Notes: generated from the letters alone by a model not told the origin. Shown: positions 11,199 to 29,834, counted from the stretch's first letter. The stretch: 64,000 nucleotides of DNA from Patescibacteria group bacterium (GCA_003504275.1 DOAO01000007.1:75535-139534); one strand, 5' to 3'. Numbers and translations are program-made.

Positions 11199-11777
11199 AT
11201 GACAAAGGAAATTAAAAAATTAAATCTTGGTGCCGGTGAATTTAAAAAGGATGGATATGTAAATGTTGATTGGCAAGATCTTACAAAACCGGATGTAAAG
11301 CACGATCTCAATGTATTACCATATCCATTTGAAAACAATACTTTTGATTTGATTGAGGCTTTTCATGTTCTGGAACACTTAGATAAACCGTTTAGCATCA
11401 TGTCGGAGCTTCATAGGATTTTGAAACCGGGGGCTATTTTGATAATAAAGGTACCTCATTTTAGTAGGGGGTTCACACACGCTGAACATTCACATGGTTT
11501 TGATGTTACTTTCCCGCTATATTTCAATAGGAATTTCACAAAATCTGGTTATTTTGGGACTGATTTTAAATTAAAAAAATTGAAGCTTAGGTGGTCGGCT
11601 TTTATACACCTCATGCCTTCTATGGGTTACGGGAAGATAAGTCTAACATTGGTTAAAATTGTTGATTTTATTTTCTCGTTTCTGGCTAATCTTAGTCCGA
11701 ATTTTTGCAGTAGAATGTGGTGTTTTTGGGTTGGTGGTTTTGAGGAAATAGAATTTGAATTCATAGCACAAAAATAA
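11199..11777 (+). CDS. class I SAM-dependent methyltransferase (Methyltransf_11-like)
   Basis: LNLGAGEFKKDGYVNVD...FHVLEHLDKP...LKPGAILII. Confidence 0.5.
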   Translation: MTKEIKKLNLGAGEFKKDGYVNVDWQDLTKPDVKHDLNVLPYPFENNTFDLIEAFHVLEHLDKPFSIMSELHRILKPGAILIIKVPHFSRGFTHAEHSHGFDVTFPLYFNRNFTKSGYFGTDFKLKKLKLRWSAFIHLMPSMGYGKISLTLVKIVDFIFSFLANLSPNFCSRMWCFWVGGFEEIEFEFIAQK

Positions 11778-14254: not shown

Positions 14255-14262
14255 AATATATA

Positions 14263-16568: not shown

Positions 16569-18425
16569 ATGTGCGGAATTTTGGGAATCGTGAGTTCAAA
16601 AGATGAGAATATCTCTGAAAGTGTTTTTAGGGAATCTCTTTCTTTGATGAGTCACAGAGGACCAGATGGTATGAATATAAAGAAGAATGTAGGGTGTATT
16701 CTTGGTCATGTTAGATTATCCATAATAGATCTTTCTGATTTAGGGAAACAACCAATGTACTGTGAGTTTAATAATAAAAAACTCATGATTGTTTTTAATG
16801 GAGAAATTTACAATTATTTAGAAATTAGAGACTCGTTACTAAAAGAAGGTTTTGTATTTAAAACAAAAACAGACACAGAGGTTCTTGTTGCCGCTTATTC
16901 TTTGTGGGGAGAAAATTGTTTAGATAGGCTCAACGGAATGTTTTCTTTTGCTATTTGGGATGTTAATAGGAGGGAGTTATTTGCAGCTAGGGACAGAATA
17001 GGAAAAAAACCTTTCTTTTACTATAAACATGGAGATACTCTTGTTTTTTCTTCAGAAATAAAGGCAATAAGAAATATTTTTCCACAAATACAAATGGATC
17101 CGGAAAAATTTTTTCAGTATTTAGTTTTACCAAATAATTATAATTCTGGGCCAATTGAAACATTTTTTAAAAACATCAAACAACTTCCCGCCGGGCATTT
17201 TATAAAATACAAAGAAGGAGGAGATTTTTTAATAAAAAAATGGTGGAGCTTTTCTGATTTATTAAAGAATTCAAAAAACGAACAGTTTTTACCAGGGGAG
17301 TTTAATTCGATTTTTCTCGACACCTTTAATGATGCTGTTAAAATAAGGACCAGGAGTGATGTAAAAATAGGATTAAGTTTAAGTGGTGGGATTGATTCAA
17401 CCTCAATATTGAGCGCACTTTCTAAAATTTATGACGAAAAAGGTGGGGATATATTTACGTTCAGTCTTTGTCACCCCGGAAGCAGTACTGATGAAAGGGG
17501 TCTCGTTCAGGACACAGTAGATTATTTTAAAAATAAAACTGGCACAAAAATTATTCCGTCTTTTTTTGACTTTCCCAAAACCATATCAGAAGAAGATGTA
17601 ATTAAGTTTTGTAAAATTCACGATGAGCCCGTTAGAAGTTTCGATGTTTATAATCAATTCTTTTTAAATAAAAAAGTACATGAATCTGGGATTAAGGTTC
17701 TGTTGAGTGGGCAAGGGGCAGATGAATTTTTTTGGGGGTATCCACGTTATTATAATGTTAAGGCCCTAGACGATCTAAAAAGAATAAAAGTTATTAATTT
17801 TATTAAGGATGTTTCATATATATCCAGTTTTTATAACAAAAAGTTTCATTCTGTGGTTTTGAATACTTTCTCAATGATGTTTCCTAGCTTATATTTTAAT
17901 AAAAGATTGGATTATTTTAGTCATAATTATTTTTTGAATAAAGATTTATTGAAGCCGGAGCTTCTTTTCAATAGATATAATTTTCTTAATCCCACCGATG
18001 CTAACGCCTTTAGGGTGGCAGAATTAGATTACTCTAGTTTGCCATCTCTCCTGAGAGATGAAGATATAAATAGTATGAGTTTTTCAGTTGAGACAAGAGC
18101 CCCCTATTTAGACTATAGAATAATGGAACTAGCAACGAAGATACCAATAGAAGAATGTTTAAAAAATAGCCAGACTAAGTATTTCAATAGATCTATTTTT
18201 TCCGAATTAATACCTAAAAATATCGCGTGGAGGAAAACAAAGTCCGGTTTTTATGAAAAAAGAACAATGAGATATCTTAATAATTTTGAGATGTTTGCAT
18301 TAAAGGAAATAAAGAAATCAGATTTTATTAAAAATTTTATTAGAATAGGAGATGTTGATTTGAACAACTCGGAATTGCTTTGGAAATTGTTTAACGTTGC
18401 CGTGTTAGATATTAAACATGATTAA
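16569..18425 (+). CDS. asnB: asparagine synthase (glutamine-hydrolysing) family amidotransferase, second paralog
   Basis: MCGILG N-terminus and SGGIDST PP-loop. Clearly diverged from the copy at 8547. Confidence 0.75.
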   Translation: MCGILGIVSSKDENISESVFRESLSLMSHRGPDGMNIKKNVGCILGHVRLSIIDLSDLGKQPMYCEFNNKKLMIVFNGEIYNYLEIRDSLLKEGFVFKTKTDTEVLVAAYSLWGENCLDRLNGMFSFAIWDVNRRELFAARDRIGKKPFFYYKHGDTLVFSSEIKAIRNIFPQIQMDPEKFFQYLVLPNNYNSGPIETFFKNIKQLPAGHFIKYKEGGDFLIKKWWSFSDLLKNSKNEQFLPGEFNSIFLDTFNDAVKIRTRSDVKIGLSLSGGIDSTSILSALSKIYDEKGGDIFTFSLCHPGSSTDERGLVQDTVDYFKNKTGTKIIPSFFDFPKTISEEDVIKFCKIHDEPVRSFDVYNQFFLNKKVHESGIKVLLSGQGADEFFWGYPRYYNVKALDDLKRIKVINFIKDVSYISSFYNKKFHSVVLNTFSMMFPSLYFNKRLDYFSHNYFLNKDLLKPELLFNRYNFLNPTDANAFRVAELDYSSLPSLLRDEDINSMSFSVETRAPYLDYRIMELATKIPIEECLKNSQTKYFNRSIFSELIPKNIAWRKTKSGFYEKRTMRYLNNFEMFALKEIKKSDFIKNFIRIGDVDLNNSELLWKLFNVAVLDIKHD

Positions 18426-19359
18426 AATTAGAGAAAATTGTCCCGTTTGTAGGAGTAGCGAAATCTCAGACATAAGGAGCAGGTACGATTTTACACTTTC
18501 TTTTTGTAAAAAGTGCGATTTTATGTTTGTTAAAGAAATATTTAATTATGATGATTTTTACAATTCTAAATATTTCCGTAATTATGCTAATTCAGAGGCC
18601 TTATTTGATAAGAACAAAGATTCTATAGAGGGGGAGTGTAGTTATGAAAAAAATAAAGACACTCACAAGATTAGCTATGAAGGTGGCTTTCGCGCGTTGA
18701 AAAAATCTATTGACCCACGTGGCGCTACTTATCTAGATATCGGGTGTGCCGAGGGTTATGGGGTTGAGTTGGCTAAAAATTTTGGGGCTATTCCATATGG
18801 GCTAGACGTTTCTAAGGATGCCGTTGAAAAATGTAGGGAAAGTGGTTTAGGGGACATGTTTGTAGGAGAGCTATCAAGTTGCCGATTTTCTAATATAAAA
18901 ATGGCGACCATGATAGATGTTCTGGAACATATGCAAGACCCTGTTTCTAACTTAAGGGCACTTAATAGAATAATGGAAACTGGAGGTTTTGTTTTTGTTA
19001 AGAATAATTTATTTTCCCTAGACTTGTTTATGAATGACAATGATTATTTTTTAAGAAATTTCGAACCACCCTACCACTGTAGTTATTTTTCCGAGAGTAA
19101 GATGGTAGAGATCTTTAATGATAATGGATTTAAATTAGTATACAGAAGACCCAATTTTGTGCTTCATGTTTTTCAAATTTACGGATATCTTAAGGGGCTT
19201 TTTAATCGGAAACACAGGGATCTTTACATGGAAAATAAAAAGAAGAGATTACCGGGATTAATGGCCAAAAAAATTAGCAAAGGAGGTTTTTGGGGTAGAA
19301 AGATGGAGGAGTTTTTCCCGTCGGGCTTTGTCTTTAAAAAGATAAAAAATATTAGTTAA
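18418..19359 (+). CDS. class I SAM-dependent methyltransferase with N-terminal Zn-ribbon
   Basis: CPVC...CKKC zinc ribbon. YLDIGCAEGYG motif I. IDVLEHMQDP. Confidence 0.55.
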   Translation: MIKIRENCPVCRSSEISDIRSRYDFTLSFCKKCDFMFVKEIFNYDDFYNSKYFRNYANSEALFDKNKDSIEGECSYEKNKDTHKISYEGGFRALKKSIDPRGATYLDIGCAEGYGVELAKNFGAIPYGLDVSKDAVEKCRESGLGDMFVGELSSCRFSNIKMATMIDVLEHMQDPVSNLRALNRIMETGGFVFVKNNLFSLDLFMNDNDYFLRNFEPPYHCSYFSESKMVEIFNDNGFKLVYRRPNFVLHVFQIYGYLKGLFNRKHRDLYMENKKKRLPGLMAKKISKGGFWGRKMEEFFPSGFVFKKIKNIS

Positions 19360-19368
19360 ATCTACTGT

Positions 19369-20748
19369 ATGAAAAAAACAATATTTATAACCAGTTTTCA
19401 CAGTATAATCTCAAAAAATATTTTTAATTCTGATGTTTTAAAGATATTGTCTGAAGATAAGAATATAAATATTGTTATTTTTGTTCCCTCCCATAAAAAA
19501 GAATTATTTGAAAAATATTACAAGAGAGATAATATAATCTTTGAGGGGATAAATCTTGAACCCTTAATTAACTCCAAGATAAACACCTTTTTTTCAAGAA
19601 TATCTTTTTTGCTTATGGATTCTCACTATCTTTGGTATAAAAAGGCGGAAAGGTTGGAGACTGCAAAAAACTTGAGGGGATATTTAAAATATTATTATGA
19701 AATTGTTTTTACAAAAATACTCAGCGGACACCGATTTGTAAATAACTTTTATAGGTTTTTTGATTACCTATTTACACCAAAGAATTTTTTCAAAAAATAT
19801 TTTGATGCATATAATCCTAACATGGTTTTTGTAACAGATCTTTTTGATAAGACTGATTCCGCCTTCTTAAGAGAAGCTAAATCTAACAAGGTTTTTTCAA
19901 TAGGAATGGTTAGATCTTGGGATAATTGCTGGAGTAAGGGGCTGATGAGAGTTTTGCCTGACAAATTTATTGTGAATAATGAAGTGATCAAAGATGAGAT
20001 CGTTTCAATGCACAATGCAGATAAAAAAAATATATTTGTTGGCGGGTTGCCACAATTTGATAAATTTTTATCTATGGACTTGGGCTCAAGAAAAGATTTT
20101 TTTGAAAAGTTGAAAATAAGGGAAGATAGAAGATTATTAATGTTTTCCCCATTAGGATATTCTTTATCGGACGTTGATTGGGAGATACTGCAGATTTTTA
20201 AAGATGCAATTAAAAATGGTGACCTACCTGAAAATATTCAATTTTTAATCAGAATGCATCCTGGCAGACCGTTGCCACTTAAGGATTTCACCCCAGACGA
20301 TCATTTTTATTTTGATAAACCAGGAATCGGAGAAGGAAAGGACGTGGAATTTCGACCAGACGACGTTGAGCATTTAGCCAAATCACTTTATTTTTCAGAG
20401 ATAATAATATGGGTAGCAACGACCCTGGGCTTAGATGCAGCTGTCTTTAATAAACCACAAATAGTTGTTAATTTTGATGGCTGGGAAAAACGCGAATATA
20501 TCAATAGTGTACGTAGATATCATAATGAGAACCATATGAGAAAAATGATAGACTGCGGAGGTGTAAAAGAGGTTTTAGACAGAGAATCTCTTATTGAGGC
20601 TATAAATAAATATTTAAACAATCCTTCTCTTGATCAGACCGGTAGAGACGCAATGGTAAAACAACAGCTCTATAAAATAGACGGTAGGTCAGGAGAGAGA
20701 ATAGCCAATTTTATTTTGAGTGAATTAGAAAAAATAGACAAAAAATAA
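19369..20748 (+). CDS. hypothetical GT-B-like protein (possible CDP-glycerol/capsule-type glycosyl- or glycerophosphotransferase)
   Basis: C-terminal IIIWVATTLGLDAAVFNKPQIVVNF resembles the Glyphos_transf / capsule biosynthesis family. Weak. Confidence 0.3.
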   Translation: MKKTIFITSFHSIISKNIFNSDVLKILSEDKNINIVIFVPSHKKELFEKYYKRDNIIFEGINLEPLINSKINTFFSRISFLLMDSHYLWYKKAERLETAKNLRGYLKYYYEIVFTKILSGHRFVNNFYRFFDYLFTPKNFFKKYFDAYNPNMVFVTDLFDKTDSAFLREAKSNKVFSIGMVRSWDNCWSKGLMRVLPDKFIVNNEVIKDEIVSMHNADKKNIFVGGLPQFDKFLSMDLGSRKDFFEKLKIREDRRLLMFSPLGYSLSDVDWEILQIFKDAIKNGDLPENIQFLIRMHPGRPLPLKDFTPDDHFYFDKPGIGEGKDVEFRPDDVEHLAKSLYFSEIIIWVATTLGLDAAVFNKPQIVVNFDGWEKREYINSVRRYHNENHMRKMIDCGGVKEVLDRESLIEAINKYLNNPSLDQTGRDAMVKQQLYKIDGRSGERIANFILSELEKIDKK

Positions 20749-20751
20749 ATT

Positions 20752-21468
20752 TTATTTTTTATTACTCTCGAGAAGCTTCATTTTTTGTTCCGCAATAAAC
20801 CAGTCCTCTTCCGTATTTATATCTACGTTGTATTTGTCGTCCATTGTGAATAGTTCAACTTTTTCTCCATATAAATTAGGAACATCTTCATATAGATTTT
20901 TGGGTCTCAGTAGATAAATAATATCGTTTCTTGAGTAGCATTCTGGTAAATCTTGGCTTCTTGTTATTATTTTCTTAAGTGGTTCTCCTGTAAATAAGGT
21001 AACTTTGTCGTCTTTATCTTTTTTTAATATCCAATAGGGATTATTGTTTGCTGTTGCCCTAATAACAGAGACCACTGAATCTGGTTTTTTGTCCTCAAAT
21101 ATTTTTATTGCTTCATCTATCTGTTCCGTCGTTCTGGTTGGATTTGTGGGTTGTAGTAGTGCTATTAAGTCGGGTTGGTAATTTTGATTTTGCTTCAACC
21201 ATTCATATGCGTGTTTGAGGACAGGTTCTATTCCCATTTTGTCTCCTGATAGTTCCTCTGGTCTAATGAAAGGAACTTCGGCTCCATATTCTCTTGCTAT
21301 GTCTGCAATTTTAACGTCGTCGGTTGAGACGATAACTCTATCTAATTTGCTCTTAATGGCACTCTCTATAGACCATGCAATAAGTGGCTTATTTAATAAA
21401 ATCTTTTCATTTTTATGAGGAATTCTTCTTGAGCCACCCCTTGCTGGTATTACAGCTAATATTTTCAT
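20752..21468 (-). CDS. neuA: acylneuraminate (nonulosonic acid) cytidylyltransferase, CMP-NulO synthetase
   Basis: MKILAVIPARGGSRRIPHKN is the CMP-NeuAc / CMP-Pse / CMP-Leg synthetase N-terminus. Confidence 0.75.
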   Translation of the reverse strand: MKILAVIPARGGSRRIPHKNEKILLNKPLIAWSIESAIKSKLDRVIVSTDDVKIADIAREYGAEVPFIRPEELSGDKMGIEPVLKHAYEWLKQNQNYQPDLIALLQPTNPTRTTEQIDEAIKIFEDKKPDSVVSVIRATANNNPYWILKKDKDDKVTLFTGEPLKKIITRSQDLPECYSRNDIIYLLRPKNLYEDVPNLYGEKVELFTMDDKYNVDINTEEDWFIAEQKMKLLESNKK

Positions 21469-21509
21469 ATTTTTTATGATATATTAAATCATTATTATCT
21501 TCAAACTAT

Positions 21510-22451
21510 ATGGAAATCAAATATTGGAAAATAGAGGACGGCATTAGAAAGGAAATAGAGGATCATTACAGAACCAGACTTGCTCTTTCTCTGAAGGAAC
21601 AAAGTGCAATAGAGATTGTTAAAGAGATAACTTTTGATAATGTCGCCCCAAATTTAAATGTGAAGGAGGTTGATAGTCTTATTTCTTTTGTTAACAAAAA
21701 TTTTTTAGAAGAGAAATTGGAAGGTGTCGGGCTAGAGGTCGGCGCAGGATGCGGATTTTTCAGCGCTGTTTTTGCTAAAGAAGCTACTGTAAAAAAGGTT
21801 TATGCCCTAGAGATAGTGGAGAATATTGTAAAAGAACTGATGCCTAAGGTCGTTGAATCTGTCGCGGGTAAAAATAGTAATAAAGTTGTTGGATGTGTGG
21901 GGGAGTTTAATAATATAGAATTACCTAATAATTCTGTTGATTTTGTATTCGATTTTTATTCACTACACCATTCTAATAATCTGGAAAAAACTTTTAGAGA
22001 ATTATTTAGGGTTTTAAAACCAGGGGGTTTTGTTTTGTGTTTTGACAAAGCCAGGAGCAATTCACTTAGCAGGGAACAATTAGACGGCCTTTTAGATAAG
22101 GAATATCCACGCGAAGCAAAAATTAACATGGGTATAGATCCTTCCGCTATTCATACACGAAGAATGAACGGAGAATATGAGTATAGGCTTAAAGATTGGG
22201 AAAAGGCTTTTTTGGATTCAGGTTTTAATAATTTTTATCACTATCATTTGGCTAGAATGGGCTCGGGCGGTGTTTTTTCTCGGATATACAAAAAGATGAT
22301 TTCAATTTTTCCTATAAAGTTACAAATATTTATAAATAACCTTTTATTGAGAAATAAGAAGGTTAATAATTTAGATGTTTCTAATGTTATCTACACTCGC
22401 TTAGTAGATAATATGCCAAAAGAAATTTCGCTGATGATGGTTTATAAATAA
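21510..22451 (+). CDS. class I SAM-dependent methyltransferase
   Basis: GLEVGAGCGFFS motif I and LKPGGFVLCFD. Confidence 0.55.
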   Translation: MEIKYWKIEDGIRKEIEDHYRTRLALSLKEQSAIEIVKEITFDNVAPNLNVKEVDSLISFVNKNFLEEKLEGVGLEVGAGCGFFSAVFAKEATVKKVYALEIVENIVKELMPKVVESVAGKNSNKVVGCVGEFNNIELPNNSVDFVFDFYSLHHSNNLEKTFRELFRVLKPGGFVLCFDKARSNSLSREQLDGLLDKEYPREAKINMGIDPSAIHTRRMNGEYEYRLKDWEKAFLDSGFNNFYHYHLARMGSGGVFSRIYKKMISIFPIKLQIFINNLLLRNKKVNNLDVSNVIYTRLVDNMPKEISLMMVYK

Positions 22452-22476
22452 AAAAAGACCACAATTTCTTGTGGTC
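22450..22476 (-). terminator. rho-independent terminator for the minus-strand radical SAM gene
   Basis: Hairpin GACCACAA-TTTC-TTGTGGTC. On the minus strand it is followed by a T6 run. Confidence 0.55.
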
Positions 22477-22483
22477 CTGTCTG

Positions 22484-24139
22484 CTACATATTTAGAATAT
22501 CTTCTATTCTCCCATTGTCTATTTTTTTTCTTGCCTCCAGAAAAATTTCGTTAGACATTTCGCTGAAGTTAAGTGGTTCTCCATTCTTGTCCAATAATAC
22601 TTTTGTTGCATCATCCAGTTCAAGAACATAATTTTGAAGCTTGTCGTCGAAAATCAGCTCTCTTTTATTGCTGAATTTTATTTCAAAATGCTTGTTAAGA
22701 ATCTTTGTGACATGGGGGTCGCTAAACATCCTTGTTCCAGGATAAGCCGTCGCAGTAAACATCTTTTTATTAATTGAGCCAACTGCAATTTTATGAGACT
22801 CTGTGCCTGGAGTTAATTCTTTAGAGACATTTTCTATCTGCCACAGTATGAAAGAAACACTCTTCTTTAAGTCATTAAGTGTTTCTCCTGGGTAACCCAT
22901 TATCCAAGTGCAGTTTGAATGTATTCCGTAAATTAGGCAGTTGTTTATTCCCTCAATCATTGTTCTTGGGAATTCAAAATCATAACCAGGTATTTTAATC
23001 ATACCTTTTTTGAGTATAAATCCACCCTTCCCCATTTTCTCTAGTATTTTTTTACTCGCACTTTCTGCGCCAAAACCTATATAAATGCACCCAGAGTCAG
23101 CCATATCCTTAAGTCTTTCGTCGGCCTCATCTATTCTTGTGTGCGTTCCCCAGCGAAGTTCAATTTCTTTGAATAATAGGGGTAGCAATTTTAATCTTTT
23201 TGTATCAACGGCAAAATTGTCGTCAGGATACCCAAGAAAATCTATTGCATATTTATCCTTAAGTATTTTTGCCTCCTGAAAAAGATTTTCAGCGCTTCTC
23301 ATTCTGTAATTTCTCTCCCCCTGAGAACCACGATAACAAAAAGCACAGTTGTATGGACAACCTCGGCTACTGACCGTAGTAAGACTTTTTTTCATTGTAA
23401 ATGGTGTAGCAGAACTATTATTCGCTGACCCACCCCAAACTGGAGTGTCAATGTACCAATCAAGGAGTCTATTACCAAAAACATCTACTTCAAGTAAATC
23501 TAGCGCAGGAAGGGGTAAAGAATTAAGGTCTTTGGGTCTGCTACCGGGGTATAAGAAGCGATGCCTACCATTAATTTTACCAAAATAGAAAGGAGAATTA
23601 AGGTTACGATCAAAATTATTAAACGCCCCATTTTTCTTGAGATCCAAAATCTCTTTAGCGATTACCAGGATAATATCGTCTCCCTCTGAGTGCCCGATAG
23701 CATCAATGTCATTTATCCAATTAAAGAGTTCGCCACGGATTTCGGTTGCAAGTCCTCCTCCAGAAATCATAAATGATTGTGGACTCGTTTTTCTACAAAT
23801 ATTGGCCACAATTTTTTGCCATCTTAGCGTTGTAATCATTCCAGAGAGGGCGATAATGTCTGGTTCGCCAAATTTATTGAAATGGCTTTCCAGGAGAAAT
23901 TTCACCTCATTCTCTGTGAGGTGTCTTCCCAAAGAAGCTCTTTTGGCTTCCGATAATTCATCAATTATACGATAGGCGTTAAGATCAACAATAGAAACAT
24001 CCGCTCCGTGGCTTCTAAGTCTGGATGCGAGTAATAGTGGTCCTTGTGGTGGTACATTTGGCCTAGCCATCTCCCTTAATGGCATATTAATGAAAACAAC
24101 ATTCAAACCTCTTAGTTCAGAAAATTCTTTTATGATCAT
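22484..24139 (-). CDS. B12-binding domain-containing radical SAM protein
   Basis: N-terminal cobalamin-binding Rossmann-like region. Radical SAM CxxxCxxC = CPYNCAFC. Confidence 0.7.
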   Translation of the reverse strand: MIIKEFSELRGLNVVFINMPLREMARPNVPPQGPLLLASRLRSHGADVSIVDLNAYRIIDELSEAKRASLGRHLTENEVKFLLESHFNKFGEPDIIALSGMITTLRWQKIVANICRKTSPQSFMISGGGLATEIRGELFNWINDIDAIGHSEGDDIILVIAKEILDLKKNGAFNNFDRNLNSPFYFGKINGRHRFLYPGSRPKDLNSLPLPALDLLEVDVFGNRLLDWYIDTPVWGGSANNSSATPFTMKKSLTTVSSRGCPYNCAFCYRGSQGERNYRMRSAENLFQEAKILKDKYAIDFLGYPDDNFAVDTKRLKLLPLLFKEIELRWGTHTRIDEADERLKDMADSGCIYIGFGAESASKKILEKMGKGGFILKKGMIKIPGYDFEFPRTMIEGINNCLIYGIHSNCTWIMGYPGETLNDLKKSVSFILWQIENVSKELTPGTESHKIAVGSINKKMFTATAYPGTRMFSDPHVTKILNKHFEIKFSNKRELIFDDKLQNYVLELDDATKVLLDKNGEPLNFSEMSNEIFLEARKKIDNGRIEDILNM

Positions 24140-24320
24140 ATTACCCCTCCTCTTCTTTATTTTAAGTTTTCAAAGTTCAGACTATTTTAAATTATAAAAG
24201 CACATAAATGGTATTTTTACAATAGCAACATAACAATTAAGATAGAAGATTATTCAATAATCGTGTTTAGATAATAGATGTGCCCAGTTTTTCTTATCTT
24301 ATGCCGAATAATAATTAAAA

Positions 24321-24342
24321 GCCGACTCTTGTGAGAGTCGGC
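24321..24342. terminator. hairpin terminator downstream of the small radical SAM gene
   Basis: GCCGACTCT-TGTGA-GAGTCGGC with A/T runs on both sides. Confidence 0.5.
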
Positions 24343-24350
24343 AAAATTTT

Positions 24351-25154
24351 TTATGTGGAAGTGGGTACGCCCCAGAATTCACATTTAGCGCAAAGGGGAA
24401 TTCCTGCTCTTTTTCCTTGCTTATGGAGTTCGAGCCACTCAAGTCTCTGTTTACCATTCCATATCTCGGCTAGGGTATTTTCATTTACATTGCCTATGAC
24501 TCCGAGATGGTTTGGGTCGAATCTGACACAGATTGAGACATCTCCTGTAATACTGATGCAAAGATGGCTAAGAAAGTCGAGACATATTCCTATTTCCGGT
24601 ATTGTGGGATTTTTTTTCTGATACTTGAAACTTCCCATTGGATGATGTAGAACCCTCTTTACCATAAGAAGTCCAAGGTGTTCATACCCCTTAGGATCAA
24701 TTTCCCCGATGAGACGAAGGTTCGTAAACGGTTTTCTATTTCCTTTTATTTTTACGAATTCTTCGATTATTTTGAGCTGTTCTTCTGCTTCGGTGTCCCC
24801 TTCAAATATTGAAATAGACATCGTATCGAGGTTGTCAATTATCTCGTCGGCTTTTTTGATGAGCAGTTTTCCGTTGGTTGTAATGCTTTTAATTTGTCTT
24901 GTAAATAATTTTAAGGCGTCGCCAAATCTGGGATAGAGTAGACCTTCTCCGTCTTTGTGAAATTGAACCACAATGTTTGAAGGAAGTTGCTCTGCTATTT
25001 TACGCAGTATTTCAAAGTCGGCGTCACCATATTTAAGCGTAAGTTCCGGAAAATCCTTTTCTACTTTTCTTCTGCCACACATCCAACATTTTTTGTTGCA
25101 CCTATTTGTGAGCTCAACATTGACGCAGTTAAGACCAAAAAGCCCTTTTTCCAT
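24351..25154 (-). CDS. radical SAM protein with C-terminal Cys-rich (SPASM/twitch-like) region
   Basis: CNKKCWMC (CX3CX2C) near the N-terminus. C-terminal CxxxxxxC...CAKCEFWG. Confidence 0.65.
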   Translation of the reverse strand: MEKGLFGLNCVNVELTNRCNKKCWMCGRRKVEKDFPELTLKYGDADFEILRKIAEQLPSNIVVQFHKDGEGLLYPRFGDALKLFTRQIKSITTNGKLLIKKADEIIDNLDTMSISIFEGDTEAEEQLKIIEEFVKIKGNRKPFTNLRLIGEIDPKGYEHLGLLMVKRVLHHPMGSFKYQKKNPTIPEIGICLDFLSHLCISITGDVSICVRFDPNHLGVIGNVNENTLAEIWNGKQRLEWLELHKQGKRAGIPLCAKCEFWGVPTST

Positions 25155-25161
25155 ATTTATT

Positions 25162-25170
25162 CCCCCCCCC
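25162..25170. repeat. homopolymeric tract C9 on plus (G9 on minus) forming the RBS of the radical SAM gene
   Basis: On the minus strand: AAGGGGGGGGGAATAAATATG. Nine G ending 7 nt before the start codon, in a very AT-rich genome. Confidence 0.6.
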
Positions 25171-25323
25171 TTATTTTCAAAGTCCTAAGTTGACAAAAGA
25201 TTAACATCTTATTAATTATTTGTCAAAAAATAAAAATGATTTTCGTTGACGCTACTTTATTAATGTGATATCTTCATTCTTAGGTCTTGGAACTTTTACA
25301 ATAAAAAAGAAGGGGGAGATATT

Positions 25324-26187
25324 ATGGCTATTAAGATTGGAAACAGGCTTGTGGGCCTCGGTCACCCGTGTTTCATTATCGGAGAAATAGGCATCAATCA
25401 CAATGGTGATGTTGCTGTCGCCAAAAGGCTTATCGAGGTTGCTAAGAATGCTGGATGTGACGCAGTTAAGTTCCAGAAAAGAACAATTGATATCGTCTAC
25501 CGGCCCGAAGAACTGGCTATGCCAAGGGAAAATCTTTTTGGTAAAACGAATGGCGATCTCAAGCGCGGACTCGAATTCGGTCAGAAAGAATATGAAGAGA
25601 TTGATCGTTATTGTAAGGAAATCGGCATCATATGGTTCGCTTCTCCGTGGGACGAGGACAGTGTTGATTTTCTCGAACAGTTTAATCCGCCCTGCTATAA
25701 AGTAGCTTCCGCTAGTTTGACTGATAGCGGTCTTTTGTCTCATATTAAGACGAAAGGAAGGCCGATTATCTTATCGACAGGCATGAGCACAATGAAGGAA
25801 ATCGAGTACGCATTCAAGGTTCTGGGAAAGGAAAATTTAATAATTCTTCACACCGTTTCCACCTATCCTTCAGAAAATGACGAGTGCAATCTCGCTGTTA
25901 TGGGAACTCTCAAGAACAAATTTAAAGATGTTCCTATTGGATATAGCGGACACGAGAGGGGTATTGTAATTTCTGTAGCGGCTGTTGCACTCGGTGCTTG
26001 TGTTATAGAGAGACATATTACCCTTGATCGCGCAATGTGGGGTTCTGATCAGGCGGCGAGTATTGAGCCAAAAGGTCTCGAACTTTTGGTCCGCGATATT
26101 CGTATGGTCGAGACAGCTATTGGAAGTCCCGAGAAAAAAGTTTACGAAAAAGAGATAGCGATAAAGAAGAAACTCCGCAGAAAATAA
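25324..26187 (+). CDS. neuB: N-acetylneuraminate synthase family (NeuB/PseI/LegI-like nonulosonic acid synthase), short form without obvious SAF domain
   Basis: FIIGEIGINHNGDVAVAKRLIEVAKNAGCDAVKFQKRT is the NeuB N-terminus. 287 aa. Strong SD GGGGGAG upstream. Confidence 0.75.
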   Translation: MAIKIGNRLVGLGHPCFIIGEIGINHNGDVAVAKRLIEVAKNAGCDAVKFQKRTIDIVYRPEELAMPRENLFGKTNGDLKRGLEFGQKEYEEIDRYCKEIGIIWFASPWDEDSVDFLEQFNPPCYKVASASLTDSGLLSHIKTKGRPIILSTGMSTMKEIEYAFKVLGKENLIILHTVSTYPSENDECNLAVMGTLKNKFKDVPIGYSGHERGIVISVAAVALGACVIERHITLDRAMWGSDQAASIEPKGLELLVRDIRMVETAIGSPEKKVYEKEIAIKKKLRRK

Positions 26188-26206
26188 ACAAAAAAGTTTT
26201 TACTTA

Positions 26207-26236
26207 AAAGGGCGAACAAATGTTCGCCCTTTATTT
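26207..26236. terminator. bidirectional rho-independent terminator between convergent neuB and the flippase gene
   Basis: AAAGGGCGAACA-AATG-TTCGCCCTTT followed by TATTTTTTAAATTTTT. Confidence 0.6.
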
Positions 26237-26237
26237 T

Positions 26238-27488
26238 TTAAATTTTTCTAAGTGTATAGAAATTAAGAATAAGATTTATAAAACCGTTTAATATTTCTGC
26301 GGCTACTGCTCCGGCTAATCCCCAGATGGGTAGTAGTATCAGTTTGAGAATTAATAATATAGTAGGATTAATAACAGATAAAAAATAATTTATTTTTTTT
26401 CCACCATGAGCTGTAATTGCAATACTCAGTGGTTTTTTGGAATAAGTTAGCAGAGTAAGGGCTAAGAACTGTGAATATATTATAGCCTCATTATATTGAG
26501 GAAAGAATATATTATAAAAATAAGGTATCAATAAAATATAAAGAACAGTAGGAATTATCATTAGCAGGGTGATTTTTAGAGACTTGATTGGAAGCGTCTT
26601 TTTTAAATCCTCAATACTTCTGGATGCTATTTTGGGAATAAGCAGGGAGTTTGATGTTTTTAGCATTGATGCAACTTGATCTACCGGGGCGGAGGCGAAG
26701 GCATAGATAGCCAGTGGTGTGGCTCCCAGGTAATGGAAAACAAGGATTTTGTCTATATTACTGCTTATCATCCCTAATATACCCATTAAGCTGAGGTGTT
26801 TTCCATATTTTATTGCCCCTTTTTCAACATCATGATTTGGTTTATATTTGCTGACGGTAACGAAATAGTAAAAGGTTACCATTATTGCATTTGATAAAAA
26901 ATAAGACCCGACAACATAGACGGGACTGCCAGTTAGCAAGATGGTGACAATCATTACAGCATTTGTGAACAAGCCGGAAGTTACACCATACGTTGTGGAG
27001 GTTTTGAATTCTTTTTTTCCCGTTAGAAATGCTCCATAAAGACTAAGGTTTGTCGTTATTGGCGACAATAGAGCGGGAAAGAGAAGGGAGATACCTAGGG
27101 TATAGTTTTGATTTAAAAAATAATAGGCAGAGATAGCTAACGATATTGATGTGGGAATGAAGCTCCACTTAAAACCTGTTTTAATCGCGGCATACATAGT
27201 ACCTTCAAACCCTCGGGAAACTGATTGGGCTACAATAGTTCCAAGTCCTGTCAGATAGAAGGCACTCGTTATTCCCGCTAAAGACATAATATATTTGTAG
27301 CTTCCATATGAATCTTTTGGGAAGTAGTTTGCAAAAACGAGAGACATTATGAATGTCCCAATCATAGATACACCAAAACCGGAACCAAGCCAAAAACCGC
27401 CCTTAGCGAAATAGACCAGGTCGGTTTTTAAATATCTTCCACCTAGTTTAAGCCATTCAAATACCTTTATCTTTATTTTTTTCAGCAT
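26238..27488 (-). CDS. oligosaccharide flippase (Wzx/MOP superfamily polysaccharide biosynthesis protein)
   Basis: 416 aa, ~12 TM helices, general MOP flippase architecture. Confidence 0.6.
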   Translation of the reverse strand: MLKKIKIKVFEWLKLGGRYLKTDLVYFAKGGFWLGSGFGVSMIGTFIMSLVFANYFPKDSYGSYKYIMSLAGITSAFYLTGLGTIVAQSVSRGFEGTMYAAIKTGFKWSFIPTSISLAISAYYFLNQNYTLGISLLFPALLSPITTNLSLYGAFLTGKKEFKTSTTYGVTSGLFTNAVMIVTILLTGSPVYVVGSYFLSNAIMVTFYYFVTVSKYKPNHDVEKGAIKYGKHLSLMGILGMISSNIDKILVFHYLGATPLAIYAFASAPVDQVASMLKTSNSLLIPKIASRSIEDLKKTLPIKSLKITLLMIIPTVLYILLIPYFYNIFFPQYNEAIIYSQFLALTLLTYSKKPLSIAITAHGGKKINYFLSVINPTILLILKLILLPIWGLAGAVAAEILNGFINLILNFYTLRKI

Positions 27489-27606
27489 CTTAACAATTTT
27501 AGACTATTTGTCGTCCTTTTGATAGAGTTACCGTTATTGAAACTATTGTTTGTGTTATTTGGTTACAAATACACCCTATTAAATAAAATTTAAAATTAAA
27601 TAATAT

Positions 27607-27864
27607 ATGTACTGCTATGTCTATGTTTTGAGGTCTGATAAGGATGGTAAAATGTATACTGGTTATACAAATAATTTAAAATTTAGATTTGATAGTCACA
27701 ATAAGGGTCTAGTGTTCTCAACAAAAAACAGAAAACCTTTTAAATTGATATATTTTGAGGGGTGCTTAAATCAACAAGATGCGACTAGGCGTGAAAAATA
27801 TTTGAAGACTATTTATGGAAAGAGGTTTATTAAAAGCAGGATCAAATCTTATTTAATAGGGTAA
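27607..27864 (+). CDS. GIY-YIG nuclease domain protein
   Basis: CYVYVLRSDKDGKMYTGYTNNLKFRFDSHN carries the GIY...YTG core. 85 aa. Confidence 0.55.
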   Translation: MYCYVYVLRSDKDGKMYTGYTNNLKFRFDSHNKGLVFSTKNRKPFKLIYFEGCLNQQDATRREKYLKTIYGKRFIKSRIKSYLIG

Positions 27865-27927
27865 ATGAAAAATAAATACAAGATAGGGGTGGCGGGGGTT
27901 GGGATGGTGGGTGTTCAGGTGAGATAA
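27865..27927 (+). pseudogene. duplicated 5' fragment (20 codons) of the downstream UDP-glucose dehydrogenase-like gene
   Basis: MKNKYKIGVAGVGMVGVQVR* matches the start of the 28959 gene (KKGQYKIGVAGVGMVGVQAERW). A 37-nt stretch is identical (27883-27919 = 28992-29028). Confidence 0.6.
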
Positions 27928-27952
27928 ACGGAAAGATGGTAAGATTAAAAAA

Positions 27953-28966
27953 ATGAAAAAGGAAAATAAAAATATTGATGAAAAATTAGATAGAGGAGAG
28001 ATAGCAATTTATCAAAATAAGGACAAGGGTGTTATCGTGGAGGCTAATCTTAAGGAGGATACTATTTGGCTTACACAAGCTCAAATAACAGACATTTTCG
28101 GAGTAGACAGAAGCGTCATAACTAAGCATATTCGTAATATATTTAAAGACGGGGAGCTAGAAGAAAAAAGCAATGTGCAAAAAATGCACATTGCTAATTC
28201 TGATAAATTGGTTAATTTTTATAACTTAGACATGATTCTCTCTGTTGGTTATAGGGTTAATTCTAAACAGGCAACACAGTTTAGGGTTTGGGCGACAAAG
28301 ACTCTCAAGGAACATATCATTAAGGGATACACGTTAAACAGTAAAAGATTGGAGGAGTTGAAGGGAAAGCAGTTAAACGAATTTGAACAAGCGATTGGCC
28401 TAATAAAAAAAACCATAGACACAAAGATTCTTTCTGGAGGAGAAGAGAGTGGTCTTTTGAAGGTCATTACCGAATACGCTAATTCCTGGTTACTCTTACA
28501 GAGATATGATGAAGATGGACTGACTCTACCAAGGAAGGTAAAAAAGCCTACTTTTTCTCTTAAATATGATTTTGCGCAATTGGCTATTTTTGATTTGAAG
28601 AGAGATTTAATGAAGAAGGGAAACGCAAGTGAGCTTTTTGGTACCGAAAGGTCAAGTCTTCAGGGTATAATAGGAAATATCTACCAAACTTTTGGTGGTT
28701 CTGAATTGTATTCAAGTATAGAAGAGAAAGCGGCTCATCTTCTTTACTTTGTTATCAAGGACCATCCTTTTGCTGACGGAAATAAACGTATAGGCTCTTT
28801 TTTGTTTATTGTTTTTCTTGCACAGAATAAACATCTTTTTAGAAAGAATGGGGATAAAAAAATAAATGACAACGCTCTTGTTGCGGTTGCTTTGCTTGTA
28901 GCCGAAAGTGAGCCTTCACACAAAGATACTTTAATAAAATTGATAACAAATTTAATTAGTGATTAA
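27953..28966 (+). CDS. RhuM-family (virulence RhuM) / Fic-DOC fusion protein
   Basis: N-terminal RhuM-like region (IWLTQAQITDIFGVDRSVITKHIRNIF...SVGYRVNSKQATQFRVWATKTL). C-terminal Fic motif HPFADGNKRIGS (HxFx[DE]GNKR). Confidence 0.65.
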   Translation: MKKENKNIDEKLDRGEIAIYQNKDKGVIVEANLKEDTIWLTQAQITDIFGVDRSVITKHIRNIFKDGELEEKSNVQKMHIANSDKLVNFYNLDMILSVGYRVNSKQATQFRVWATKTLKEHIIKGYTLNSKRLEELKGKQLNEFEQAIGLIKKTIDTKILSGGEESGLLKVITEYANSWLLLQRYDEDGLTLPRKVKKPTFSLKYDFAQLAIFDLKRDLMKKGNASELFGTERSSLQGIIGNIYQTFGGSELYSSIEEKAAHLLYFVIKDHPFADGNKRIGSFLFIVFLAQNKHLFRKNGDKKINDNALVAVALLVAESEPSHKDTLIKLITNLISD

Positions 28967-29834
28967 AGCCATGAAAAAGGGGCAATACAAAATAGGGGTG
29001 GCGGGGGTTGGGATGGTGGGTGTTCAGGCAGAAAGATGGTTCAAGTCAAAGGGATTTGAAGTTTTTGCTTATGATAAATTCAAAAATATTGGAAAAGAGG
29101 AAGATCTGCAGAAAGCCGATTTGATATTTTTGTGTTTACCTACTCCCCATAAGGATAAGGTTAATACGGGGGTGGATATTTCAGTATTTTTTGATTTTTT
29201 GAAGAAGTTTAAAGAACCAAAGATATTTGTAATCAAGTCCACCGTTCCGCCCGGAGCGACCGAGGCAATACAAAAGAAATTTCCCAAACACAAATTCTTA
29301 CATAGTCCGGAGTTTTTGACCGAAGCCACCGCTTGGAAAGATTTTTCAAAACCTGTATTTCAGCTTCTTGGATATACAGAAAAAAGTAAAGATGTGGCTC
29401 AGAATGTTTTAGATATTCTTCCAAGGTCTAAAAAAACAAATTTATTAATGAAGTCTTCTGAGACAGAGGTATTCAAATTTGCACGAAATGCATTCTTTGC
29501 TGTTAAGGTTGTTTTTGCTAATCAGATATATGATATTTGTAAATCTTTTGGCGGTGATTACGATATTATAAAAAATTTAATGCTTTCCGATCCTTGGATA
29601 GGAGGACATCATTTGGAGGTGATTCATAAAGGGTATAGGGGGTTTGGAGGTAAGTGTCTTCCAAAAGATCTCAAGACTTTCATAAAGGTATTTAAAACCA
29701 AAAAATTAAAGCCAGAATTATTTGAAGCGACCGATAGAATCAATGATGGTCTTATAAAAAAACAAAAACTCACAAAAACCTTGAATAAATATTGGTTGGG
29801 AAATTACAACGAGCCCGATTTAGTAAAATTTTAA
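28959..29834 (+). CDS. UDP-glucose/GDP-mannose dehydrogenase family protein, short form (N-terminal NAD-binding and central domains only)
   Basis: N-terminal KIGVAGVGMVGV Rossmann motif. GFGGKCLPKDL catalytic Cys region near the C-terminus. Ends ~100 aa earlier than canonical ~430-aa enzymes. Confidence 0.5.
   Translation: MIKAMKKGQYKIGVAGVGMVGVQAERWFKSKGFEVFAYDKFKNIGKEEDLQKADLIFLCLPTPHKDKVNTGVDISVFFDFLKKFKEPKIFVIKSTVPPGATEAIQKKFPKHKFLHSPEFLTEATAWKDFSKPVFQLLGYTEKSKDVAQNVLDILPRSKKTNLLMKSSETEVFKFARNAFFAVKVVFANQIYDICKSFGGDYDIIKNLMLSDPWIGGHHLEVIHKGYRGFGGKCLPKDLKTFIKVFKTKKLKPELFEATDRINDGLIKKQKLTKTLNKYWLGNYNEPDLVKF

Follow-up and report, generated by a model that had tools for sequence, protein, structure and literature searches.

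Profile searches with Pfam and NCBIfam across every gene of the module identified a five-gene core at positions 20752 to 26187 of the window (the whole 64,000-nucleotide stretch of DNA analyzed). It encodes a CTP_transf_3 cytidylyltransferase, a class I methyltransferase, two radical SAM (rSAM) enzymes of 551 and 267 amino acids (aa), and a NeuB-family protein lacking the SAF domain. The deposited protein records are KKQ82352 to KKQ82356, from Parcubacteria group bacterium GW2011_GWF2_38_76. A glycosyltransferase flanks the core on one side and a flippase on the other, and the whole set lies within a 30-kb glycan island whose tailoring genes include at least nine class I methyltransferases, two Asn-synthase-like amidotransferases, and one pyruvyl transferase.

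19369..20748, + strand: Glyphos_transf glycosyltransferase, 459 aa, BFO_1060-like (PF04464, 35.3 bits)
20752..21468, - strand: CTP_transf_3 cytidylyltransferase ("neuA"), 238 aa, KKQ82356 (PF02348, 89.5 bits)
21510..22451, + strand: class I SAM-dependent methyltransferase (MTa), 313 aa, KKQ82355 (Methyltransf_11, 60.3 bits)
22484..24139, - strand: rSAM enzyme with an N-terminal cobalamin-binding-type Rossmann domain (B12-rSAM), 551 aa, KKQ82354 (Radical_SAM, 71.7 bits)
24321..24342, - strand: terminator-like hairpin directly 3' of the twitch rSAM gene (9-bp stem, 6 G-C pairs, then a T-run)
24351..25154, - strand: twitch-domain rSAM enzyme, BtrN-like, 267 aa, KKQ82353 (Radical_SAM, 33.5 bits; SPASM, 44.8 bits)
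25324..26187, + strand: SAF-less NeuB-family PEP-aldose condensing enzyme (predicted), 287 aa, KKQ82352 (PF03102, 272.7 bits)
26238..27488, - strand: MOP/Wzx-type flippase, 416 aa (Polysacc_synt_3, 43.6 bits)

A preliminary description of this locus had named four genes, with neuA and neuB bracketing the two rSAM genes. All four are present at the positions listed here, but the 313-aa methyltransferase between "neuA" and the B12-rSAM had been overlooked, and the names neuA and neuB hold at the family level while neither protein attains any equivalog cut-off. Both rSAM genes come with a terminator-like hairpin of their own, and the one after the twitch rSAM gene suggests that the two are separate transcription units. 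No riboswitch was found at the locus, no aminotransferase or SDR gene lies within 8 kb of the module in the window, and the window carries no phosphatase gene.

Domain architecture of the core proteins

The 551-aa protein carries the CX3CX2C motif as CPYNCAFC (residues 261 to 268; PF04055, 71.7 bits), with all three cysteines invariant in 26 homologues. The earlier reading of this protein as a B12-binding rSAM enzyme stands for the rSAM assignment and the motif, but its own match to the Pfam B12-binding domain (PF02310) is below the cut-off (19.4 bits versus a threshold of 32.1). Despite this score, the AlphaFold model (pLDDT 87) supports a predicted N-terminal Rossmann domain of the cobalamin type, as do precomputed PF02310 matches recorded for many orthologues and fold matches to OxsB, TsrM, TokK, CysS, and MgmA, although the fold also matches the cobalamin-free AprD4. 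Within this domain, S99-x-M and G127-G-G129 are invariant, and we take them to resemble the SxL...GG cobalamin motif known from MetH. The nearest NCBIfam profiles are P-methylase, ApyD, PhpK, HpnJ, and BchE (67 to 73 bits; BchE, 53 bits), of which the P-methylase model covers residues 23 to 431 at 73 bits; the AprD4 family model reaches only 29.7 bits. Class B enzymes consume two SAM per methyl transfer, forming SAH and 5'-dA. By fold, the B12-type enzyme is nearest to the cobalamin-independent sugar dehydratase AprD4 and next nearest to the methylases TsrM and CysS; its proposed C-methylation is therefore rated here as plausible.

In the 267-aa protein, the motif reads CNKKCWMC (residues 19 to 26, with C19, C23, and C26; PF04055, 33.5 bits), and its three cysteines are invariant in 28 homologues. 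The Cys-rich C terminus noted previously does contain five cysteines (residues 191, 199, 209, 255, and 258), but only C191, C209, C255, and C258 are invariant. The SPASM profile matches at 44.8 bits (PF13186) with CX2CX5CX3C reduced to CX2C, and the four invariant cysteines indicate a one-cluster twitch domain rather than a full seven-Cys SPASM domain. The best PDB sequence match is BtrN (profile E value, 7e-13, in two segments), to whose cysteines C209, C255, and C258 align. Foldseek searches with the AF2 model (pLDDT 81.6) ranked BtrN (4m7t; E value, 3e-10), DesII, CteB, EpeE, and SpeY, with PqqE also among the fold matches. Its size, a single predicted Cys-ligated auxiliary cluster, and the similarity to BtrN place the protein among BtrN-type twitch enzymes; BtrN, DesII, and SpeY all act on sugars or cyclitols. 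The modeled fold would allow oxidation of a carbinol to a ketone and is equally compatible with a NeoN-like epimerase or a DesII-like eliminase. The GenBank name of this protein, molybdopterin cofactor synthesis protein MoaA, was rejected at 15.9 to 19.2 bits against cut-offs of 231 to 325.

The NeuB homologue belongs to PF03102 (272.7 bits versus a gathering score of 22.1) and falls short of both equivalogs, NeuB_NnaB (TIGR03569; 270.4 versus 399.65 bits) and PseI (TIGR03586; 221.6 versus 340.25 bits); the profile alignment runs to position 278 of 329, and the chain itself ends at residue 287. As previously proposed, this short protein has no C-terminal SAF domain: Pfam returned no PF08666 match, and the chain stops 17 residues past the NeuB domain. 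SAF is likewise absent in 43 of 47 and in 56 of 57 rSAM-linked NeuB homologues, and the best PDB match (6ncs) is a SAF-less 290-aa chain. The metal and PEP residues corresponding to E25, K53, Q55, H215, E234, H236, and D247 of Neisseria meningitidis NeuB are conserved, and the E134 position is Ser (S, C, T, or M among rSAM-linked NeuBs). Absence of SAF is not unusual by itself, since about 30% of UniProt NeuB-family sequences lack this domain (PMC8208679).

The cytidylyltransferase is assigned to CTP_transf_3 at the family level only. Its closest NCBIfam model is PseF (TIGR03584; 166.3 bits versus a cut-off of 205.7), with the KdsB (Kdo cytidylyltransferase) models scoring lower, and CMP-ulosonate is its candidate product as predicted from sequence. 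The 459-aa glycosyltransferase, which matches the BFO_1060 family below its cut-off (45.5 bits), is a candidate for transferring the CMP-activated sugar.

Conservation of the two gene neighborhoods

Orthologues of the B12-rSAM (44 to 63% identity) were recovered at 80 genome loci and on four contigs from single-protein look-ups, in classes of the candidate phyla radiation (CPR), Planctomycetota, Nitrospirae, Acidobacteriota, a nanoarchaeon, and cultured Roseibium. Among the 48 loci flanked by 8 kb or more, NeuB and CTP_transf_3 each occur in 37; 28 have a KdsC-like HAD protein and 22 have an SDR, while approximately a quarter have no NeuB or CTP_transf_3 gene within 10 kb (NeuB is absent in 11 of 48). 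A recurrent order is Flip <NeuB <(AP_endonuc_2, SDR, HAD) >B12rSAM <MT >CTP3 <GT, and in most related loci the B12-rSAM gene adjoins the cytidylyltransferase gene or sits one methyltransferase gene away. MTa orthologues lie between these two genes in 19 to 20 related loci, the glycosyltransferase orthologue comes after the cytidylyltransferase in 24 to 25 B12-rSAM loci, and the flippase orthologue adjoins NeuB in 30 to 32. The HAD proteins resemble KdsC/KDN-9-P-phosphatase (91.8 and 64 bits). The SDR has PRK09186 as its best NCBIfam match, also matches the PtmA model, and is often accompanied by an AP_endonuc_2 protein. Roseibium sp. TrichSKD4 carries a compact six-gene set (NeuB, KdsC-like HAD, two methyltransferases, B12-rSAM, and CTP_transf_3) with an adjoining TPR glycosyltransferase; there are no polysaccharide genes in this module, and no SDR gene lies near the B12-rSAM in either the window or the Roseibium loci.

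The twitch rSAM has more than 1600 homologues at 60 to 84% identity, many of them from Omnitrophota, where the gene lies between NeuB and CTP_transf_3, with a 4-nt NeuB overlap in one instance. The NeuB-twitch-CTP_transf_3 adjacency was seen in all three single look-ups, and each partner was found at 26 of the 27 metagenome loci that have 3 kb or more of flanking sequence. Every one of these 27 loci, unlike the window, encodes an aminotransferase and/or an SDR that could act on a keto product. The KdsC-like phosphatase, present in about half of the B12-rSAM loci, never co-occurs with the twitch rSAM.

The preliminary description had staked its interpretation on synteny of the rSAM genes with neuA/neuB in related genomes and on there being no RiPP precursor nearby. 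The synteny holds in many lineages. Open reading frames of at least 20 aa across positions 24100 to 25340 either overlap the rSAM and NeuB genes in antisense or encode hydrophobic strings of low complexity; none of them is precursor-like, and related loci contain no conserved small gene. Synteny of this kind is evidence of a shared pathway or glycan, not of the molecule on which each rSAM enzyme acts.

Proposed pathway and competing explanations

The island contains no NeuC, PseB/C/H/G, or LegB/C/H/G-type precursor genes for Neu5Ac, pseudaminic acid, or legionaminic acid, and the nine-carbon sugar envisaged earlier is not borne out. The KdsC-like phosphatases and GmhA-like isomerases of related loci would fit Kdo/Kdn-like or longer 3-deoxy-2-ulosonic acids. 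The explanation we favor, tentatively and at close to an even chance, is that the module encodes a tailoring-rich pathway to a CMP-activated 3-deoxy-2-ulosonic acid for a surface glycan, with both rSAM enzymes acting on that sugar. Judging from homology and conserved catalytic residues, the SAF-less NeuB would condense PEP with an aldose to form the ulosonic acid. The twitch enzyme, with one auxiliary [4Fe-4S] cluster as in BtrN, SpeY, and DesII, may abstract hydrogen at a sugar carbinol carbon, leading to a ketone or to radical elimination, and would replace the KdsC-like phosphatase, SDR, and xylose-isomerase-like enzyme of related loci. In the least certain step, the B12-rSAM may methylate an unactivated sugar carbon, by analogy with GenK (sugar) and Fom3 (CMP-linked), and would thus yield a C-branched or chain-extended ulosonic acid. 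The class I methyltransferase would add an O-methyl group, CTP_transf_3 would form the CMP-sugar, the BFO_1060-like glycosyltransferase would transfer it, and the flippase would export the lipid-linked unit; the steps after condensation are listed here in no implied order. Several observations weigh against this explanation. If the twitch enzyme makes a keto product, no aminotransferase or SDR lies within 8 kb in the window to convert it, whereas all 27 other twitch loci have one or both. Precursor genes that would indicate the aldose used by NeuB are absent, an SDR adjoins the B12-rSAM in many loci, and NeuB or CTP_transf_3 is missing from the surroundings of roughly one in four well-flanked B12-rSAM loci.

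A more specific version, possible but on the unlikely side, is that the B12-rSAM methylates a backbone carbon of the free or CMP-linked ulosonic acid (e.g., the terminal hydroxymethyl carbon, as in GenK and Fom3), giving a chain-extended or C-branched "higher-carbon" ulosonic acid, and that the twitch enzyme substitutes radical chemistry for the KdsC-type phosphatase/SDR route. The pair would then form a radical-SAM branch of sialic-acid-like sugar biosynthesis and offer candidate enzymology for C10 ulosonic acids. Mass spectrometry of Magnetospirillum gryphiswaldense has revealed unassigned CMP-activated C10 ulosonic acids (bioRxiv 10.64898/2026.04.20.719630).

The same gene content can be read differently. 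The "B12" rSAM could be a cobalamin-independent, AprD4-like radical dehydratase or lyase acting on a vicinal diol of the ulosonic acid, with the SDR of most loci reducing the resulting ketone to give a deoxy rather than a C-methylated product. AprD4 does act on a sugar, the Pfam B12-binding score is sub-threshold, and an SDR flanks the enzyme in 22 of 48 well-flanked loci; in those loci, this AprD3/AprD4-like arrangement favors deoxygenation over methylation. Overall we consider this unlikely: the profile lies much nearer to cobalamin-type families (P-methylase at 73 bits, PhpK, HpnJ, and BchE) than to AprD4 (29.7 bits), the N-terminal domain shows no variation in residues where the cofactor would be expected to sit, and the enzyme occurs without any SDR in the window and in Roseibium. 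It is more doubtful that the rSAM enzymes leave the ulosonic acid itself alone and modify another component of the same glycan, be it a different sugar, its lipid carrier, or the completed polymer. Such a role would suit an island unusually rich in methyltransferases, amidotransferases, and pyruvyl transferase, the separate hairpin of each rSAM gene, and the 11 of 48 loci missing NeuB within 10 kb. The partners that stay constant across phyla are nevertheless NeuB and CTP_transf_3 (plus HAD for the B12 family), whereas glycosyltransferases and other tailoring genes vary; the Omnitrophota twitch gene sits between these two partners with one 4-nt NeuB overlap, and the compact Roseibium module is free of polysaccharide genes.

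A last reading, in which the rSAM genes encode maturases of a RiPP or a cofactor (e.g., MoaA) and lie among sugar genes by chance, is extremely improbable and is already contradicted by synteny, with NeuB and CTP_transf_3 in 26 of 27 well-flanked twitch loci. The deposited MoaA name, the frequency of SPASM/twitch domains in peptide maturases, and the fold matches to CteB, EpeE, and PqqE speak for it; they stand against MoaA-model scores of 16 to 19 bits (cut-offs, 231 to 325), the lack of a precursor-like small open reading frame in or beside the intergenic regions, and the carbohydrate enzyme BtrN as the top match in both sequence and fold.

Comparison with described systems

Among the cobalamin-dependent class B rSAM C-methyltransferases, GenK (gentamicin) methylates a sugar carbon, and Fom3 (fosfomycin) methylates a CMP-linked substrate at its hydroxymethyl carbon. 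The B12-rSAM resembles them in its rSAM barrel and its predicted N-terminal cobalamin-type Rossmann domain but shows no detectable orthology (best NCBIfam score of 73 bits versus cut-offs above 500), and its predicted substrate would be a 3-deoxy-2-ulosonic acid. AprD4 and AprD3, an rSAM 1,2-diol dehydratase and an SDR reductase, carry out C3' deoxygenation in apramycin biosynthesis, AprD4 without cobalamin; the B12-rSAM differs in its low identity to AprD4 (18%) and its invariant cofactor-site motifs. BtrN and SpeY are twitch rSAM dehydrogenases of butirosin and spectinomycin biosynthesis, and BtrN pairs with the aminotransferase BtrS. The twitch enzyme resembles them in size (approximately 250 to 300 aa), in combining CX3CX2C with a four-Cys auxiliary-cluster domain in which three cysteines align to BtrN, and in the aminotransferase neighbor of most relatives. 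Its identity to BtrN is only 19%, however, and its context is NeuB and a CMP-transferase rather than an aminocyclitol pathway, with no aminotransferase in the window itself.

Kdn (Bacteroides thetaiotaomicron) and Kdo/Kdo8N are made with an aldose-phosphate plus PEP synthase, a KdsC-family phosphatase, and CTP_transf_3, and in Shewanella KdnB/KdnA perform oxidation-transamination. Related B12-rSAM loci likewise combine a NeuB-type synthase, KdsC-like HAD, and CTP_transf_3, and the oxidation-then-transamination pairing recurs in twitch loci; the window differs in having no phosphatase. To our knowledge, rSAM enzymes are part of no described Kdn, Kdo, or Kdo8N pathway. The NeuB/NeuA, PseI/PseF, and LegI/LegF pairs use the same two enzyme families for condensation and CMP activation, but here SAF and the dedicated precursor genes are missing. 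A literature search returned no publication linking rSAM enzymes to nonulosonic or ulosonic acid synthesis, in agreement with the earlier remark that no description was known.

Microbial surfaces, including flagellins, S-layers, capsules, and phage receptors, are shaped to a large extent by nonulosonic and related ulosonic acids, and the routes to these sugars that we know of use polar (two-electron) chemistry exclusively. In CPR bacteria, Omnitrophota, Planctomycetota, and cultured Roseibium, two large conserved rSAM families are tied to the genes for SAF-less NeuB and the CMP-transferase. This implies a sizeable unexplored sugar chemistry (C-methylated, chain-extended, deoxygenated, or anaerobically aminated), and the recurrence of rSAM genes beside sugar genes in many microbes points to an undescribed radical modification of surface sugars. 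It also supplies a hypothesis at the gene level for the "higher-carbon" CMP-ulosonic acids that mass spectrometry has shown and for which no pathway is known, and Roseibium, with its compact six-gene version, is a culturable model that makes direct testing possible.

Gene content of the module and its glycan island

The cytidylyltransferase gene of the CTP_transf_3 family (CTP3, the "neuA" of the preliminary description) and the NeuB-family synthase gene enclose two radical SAM (rSAM) genes, one encoding a 551-aa protein (B12-rSAM) and the other a 267-aa protein (twitch rSAM). The preliminary description had recognized this gene set, and our analysis confirms it with corrections: its four genes stand, but the class I methyltransferase gene at 21510–22451 had been overlooked. 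The B12-rSAM is 100% identical to KKQ82354 of Parcubacteria group bacterium GW2011_GWF2_38_76.

Genes of the module and its immediate flanks
19369–20748, plus strand: Glyphos_transf/BFO_1060-like glycosyltransferase, 459 aa
20752–21468, minus strand: CTP_transf_3 cytidylyltransferase, 238 aa (PseF model, 166 bits, below the 205.7 cut-off)
21510–22451, plus strand: class I SAM methyltransferase, 313 aa
22484–24139, minus strand: B12-rSAM, 551 aa (CPYNCAFC at residues 261–268; B12-binding match subthreshold, 19.4 bits)
24351–25154, minus strand: twitch rSAM with rSAM and SPASM matches, 267 aa (CNKKCWMC at residues 19–26)
25324–26187, plus strand: NeuB, 287 aa (272.7 bits; without SAF domain)
26238–27488, minus strand: Wzx-type flippase, 416 aa

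Terminator-like hairpins are located 3′ of the B12-rSAM, twitch-rSAM, and NeuB genes. A scan of positions 19000–28500 for riboswitches and other RNA elements, evaluated by Rfam E values, returned only subthreshold matches, which fall on the NeuB/flippase terminator hairpin or, for CRISPR-DR63 (31.6 bits), inside the methyltransferase gene, and these are treated as chance. The G+C content is 0.36 to 0.39 across the rSAM and NeuB genes (22001–26000) versus 0.30 to 0.35 in most neighboring 2-kb bins of the glycan island, which could mean either that the module was acquired laterally or that Cys- and Gly-rich enzymes shape the composition.

The module lies within a 30-kb surface-glycan island that also encodes GT4 and GT2 glycosyltransferases and a Wzy-TPR protein. 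Methyltransferase genes are exceptionally abundant in the island, numbering nine or more of the class I or FkbM type.

Further modification genes of the island
456–1121, 1118–1762, 4483–5196, 5181–5855, 10427–11194, 11199–11777, 11779–12468, 18418–19359, and 21510–22451: class I or FkbM-type methyltransferases
8547–10415 and 16569–18425: Asn-synthase-like amidotransferases
15419–16558: CsaB-like pyruvyl transferase

NeuC, PseB/C/H/G-type, and LegB/C/H/G-type genes and an aminotransferase are absent from the island. A canonical Neu5Ac, Pse, or Leg pathway was rejected, as the Pfam-annotated ORFs of the island and its surroundings include 0 precursor genes.

The gap between the flippase and Wzy-TPR genes of the window contains a GIY-YIG gene (27607–27864) and a RhuM/Fic gene (27953–28966), and the same position on the related contig L001 (3365–6202) contains AbiEii/DUF6922 toxin-antitoxin-like genes. 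Judged by these gene contents, the gap may be a hot spot for the insertion of defense or addiction modules into the glycan island. A 291-aa ORF with a GTG start (28959–29834) matches only part of the N-terminal and central domains of UDP-glucose/GDP-mannose dehydrogenase and is probably a truncated remnant because the C-terminal dehydrogenase domain is absent. A 23S rRNA intervening-sequence protein gene (37480–37941; PF05635, 118.5 bits) adjoins an NAD-dependent epimerase gene, and the annotated stretch contains no rRNA near it.

Neighborhoods of the two radical SAM families

The B12-rSAM family includes more than 1,000 homologues at 55 to 63% identity. A scan of one genome per species gave 80 loci, in which ORFs were called and clustered before six-frame ORFs were re-scored with family HMMs. 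The hosts include many lineages of the candidate phyla radiation (CPR), Planctomycetota, Nitrospirae, Acidobacteriota, Deltaproteobacteria, one nanoarchaeon, and at least 10 Roseibium genomes, among them the cultured R. aggregatum, R. hamelinense, and R. litorale. NeuB and CTP_transf_3 genes are each found in 37 of the 48 loci that extend 8 kb or more to each side, together with genes for a KdsC-like HAD phosphatase (28/48), SDR (22/48), flippase (21/48), and glycosyltransferase (16/48). The alternating-strand order seen in the window (flippase> <NeuB ... >B12-rSAM <methyltransferase >CTP3 <glycosyltransferase) is repeated across CPR. The slot between NeuB and B12-rSAM is variable and, as a rule, is filled by three genes, encoding an AP_endonuc_2 protein (nearest model, L-ribulose-5-P 3-epimerase, 59 bits), SDR (one or two; PRK09186 as the top model, also PtmA-like), and a KdsC-like phosphatase (KdsC, 91.8 bits; KDN-9-P phosphatase, 64 bits). 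Some loci also encode a GmhA-like sedoheptulose-7-P isomerase (187 bits). The compact locus of Roseibium sp. TrichSKD4 carries genes for a ferredoxin-reductase-like protein, NeuB, KdsC-like HAD, TylF-type and class I methyltransferases, B12-rSAM, and CTP3, and adjoins a TPR glycosyltransferase gene. Immediately downstream of the B12-rSAM orthologue of Candidatus Sungiibacteriota CP066690 are an RVT_1 reverse transcriptase gene and a bAvd gene (12152–13555 of locus L003), a pair typical of diversity-generating retroelements.

The twitch-rSAM family is large and tight (more than 1,600 matches at 60 to 84% identity, many in Omnitrophota). NeuB, rSAM, and CTP3 genes are consecutive in all three individually examined loci, with a 4-nt overlap with NeuB in one of them. 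We sampled 80 metagenome loci and counted neighbors in the 27 whose flanks reach 3 kb or more. NeuB and CTP3 are each present in 26, and an aminotransferase and/or SDR is present in all 27; 19 carry an aminotransferase (class III with a VOC protein, class IV, or DegT) and 12 carry an SDR. B12-domain rSAMs occur in 17 of the 27 loci, nearly all from other subfamilies. A single B12-rSAM family common to the Omnitrophota NeuB clusters was rejected, since most neighbors there score 47 to 131 bits against the orthologue HMM versus 450 to 930 bits for true orthologues. Four Omnitrophota-type metagenome contigs (L085, L086, L088, and L096) combine NeuB, twitch rSAM, and CTP3 genes with two or three other-subfamily B12-domain rSAM genes, and L085 carries, in addition, genes for a PEP-mutase/nucleotidyltransferase fusion and a LIC12162-family protein. 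Such clusters hint at phosphonate decoration and a wider range of rSAM-tailored ulosonic acids.

Orthologues of both rSAMs occur together in only four loci (the window, L005, L147, and L165). The twitch gene of the window and of L005 occupies the place of the AP_endonuc_2, SDR, and HAD genes of related loci, and L147 and L165 agree with each other in the order <NeuB >twitch >B12-rSAM. KdsC-like phosphatase genes accompany the B12-rSAM orthologue in 45 of 87 loci and the twitch-rSAM orthologue in 0 of 85, one 27-bit match aside. This exclusion, and the position of the twitch gene, make the twitch enzyme look like an alternative to the trio, perhaps an anaerobic oxidase or epimerase acting in place of the SDR and epimerase or, more speculatively, a radical eliminase of a terminal phosphate, giving a deoxy-keto sugar that is later transaminated or reduced.

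Sequence and predicted structure of the enzymes

The metal- and PEP-binding residues of NeuB are retained, as aligned to Neisseria meningitidis E25, K53, Q55, H215, E234, H236, and D247. At residue 131, the counterpart of catalytic E134 in the N. meningitidis enzyme, the window protein has Ser and 104 rSAM-linked homologues have C, S, T, or M, with little or no variation at the remaining catalytic, metal, and PEP residues that were checked; the change may signal that the substrate is handled differently. The preliminary description had correctly regarded NeuB as short and apparently devoid of an SAF domain. A C-terminal extension of SAF size is missing in 43 of 47 and 56 of 57 rSAM-linked NeuBs, and the best solved relative is 6ncs, an SAF-less chain of 290 aa. 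Because SAF-less NeuBs already make up ∼30% of the family, clustered among environmental bacteria (PMC8208679), the loss is a signature of the rSAM-linked group and no novelty.

The AlphaFold model of B12-rSAM (pLDDT 87, pTM 0.88) has an N-terminal Rossmann domain followed by an rSAM barrel. Foldseek matches it to OxsB, AprD4, TsrM, TokK, MgmA, and CysS (E values of 1e-12 to 3e-16), so the predicted structure places it in the B12-domain rSAM class. Besides methylases, this class takes in the ring-contracting OxsB and AprD4, a sugar dehydratase that works without cobalamin. Twelve residues of the N-terminal domain (S99, G100, T103, T104, L105, W107, Q108, G127, G129, E152, G153, and D154) are invariant in 26 orthologues. 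Among them, S99-x-M and G127-G-G129 appear to resemble SxL...GG, the cobalamin tail-binding motif of MetH.

The small rSAM has three invariant cluster cysteines, and the only invariant cysteines of its C terminus are C191, C209, C255, and C258. Its family profile matches BtrN (E value, 7e-13), with C209, C255, and C258 aligned to BtrN cysteines, and its model (pLDDT 81.6) matches BtrN best (E value, 3e-10), followed by DesII, CteB, EpeE, and SpeY. The four C-terminal cysteines and the BtrN-first matches of profile and predicted fold thus identify it as a twitch-type, small-molecule rSAM. A full two-cluster SPASM peptide maturase was rejected on the number of these cysteines, as was the database annotation as MoaA, on scores of 16 to 19 bits against cut-offs of 231 to 325.

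A candidate ulosonic acid pathway

The association of rSAMs with NeuB and CTP3 is real and conserved, and that both rSAMs belong to the NeuB/CTP3 sugar pathway is well supported and, in our judgment, probable. A modified, CMP-activated 3-deoxy-2-ulosonic acid pathway has the most support of the readings compared, and the full scheme, including the specific chemistries that we infer, is more tentative, at a little under an even chance. NeuB would perform the condensation, the twitch rSAM would abstract hydrogen and oxidize the sugar, the B12-domain rSAM would methylate carbon (with GenK and Fom3 as analogues), and the class I methyltransferase would methylate oxygen. CTP_transf_3 would activate the sugar, the BFO_1060-like glycosyltransferase would transfer it, and the flippase would export it.

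In the main rival reading, which we regard as unlikely but worth serious consideration, the B12-type enzyme would be an AprD4-like dehydratase paired with an adjacent SDR. AprD4 is among the fold matches, and SDR genes recur in the neighborhoods; the sequence is nearer the models of P-methylase, ApyD, PhpK, HpnJ, and BchE (67 to 73 bits; BchE, 53) than that of AprD4 (29.7 bits), all of these scores being far under the respective cut-offs, and the Sden_1168 model alignment begins at residue 23. It is rather improbable that the rSAMs act on a different component of the glycan; the wealth of other modification genes in the island speaks for this reading, and the company that the rSAM families keep with NeuB and CTP3 speaks against it. 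Least probable by far is a RiPP or cofactor role. The small protein has a SPASM match; no RiPP precursor is present among ORFs of at least 20 aa over 24100–25340, covering both intergenic gaps flanking the twitch gene, and no conserved small gene is found in 165 related loci. The preliminary description had likewise seen no precursor nearby, and had named such a peptide, or lack of synteny with neuA/neuB, as grounds for abandoning its reading. With NeuB/CTP3 synteny conserved in both families and no candidate precursor, neither ground exists.

A modified ulosonic acid pathway of this kind is built entirely from known superfamilies, and its logic of synthase, tailoring, CMP activation, and transfer is conventional. 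To our knowledge, a radical SAM enzyme is absent from every Neu5Ac, Pse, Leg, Kdn, Kdo, and Kdo8N pathway described so far, whereas the candidate pathway of the window would have two. The association is apparently undescribed, as the preliminary description had supposed; a search of openly accessible full-text literature found no description of rSAM or cobalamin enzymes associated with nonulosonic or ulosonic acid synthesis. For Magnetospirillum gryphiswaldense, a 2026 preprint (10.64898/2026.04.20.719630) reports CMP-activated ulosonic acids whose backbone is elongated to C10, without a biosynthetic explanation. The compared loci suggest two candidate routes to such sugars, namely, C-methylation by a B12-domain rSAM or the use of a GmhA-derived heptose phosphate as the partner of PEP in the condensation.

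Culturable Roseibium provides a direct test bed for the association. Roseibium sp. TrichSKD4 (12494–14377 of locus L044) and other Roseibium loci encode a 627-aa protein that combines TPR repeats at the N terminus with an uncharacterized C-terminal domain; its gene lies on the opposite strand directly downstream of that for the cytidylyltransferase, in convergent orientation. The architecture is reminiscent of FlmG-type flagellin glycosyltransferases, which makes flagellin a possible target of decoration by the Roseibium sugar.
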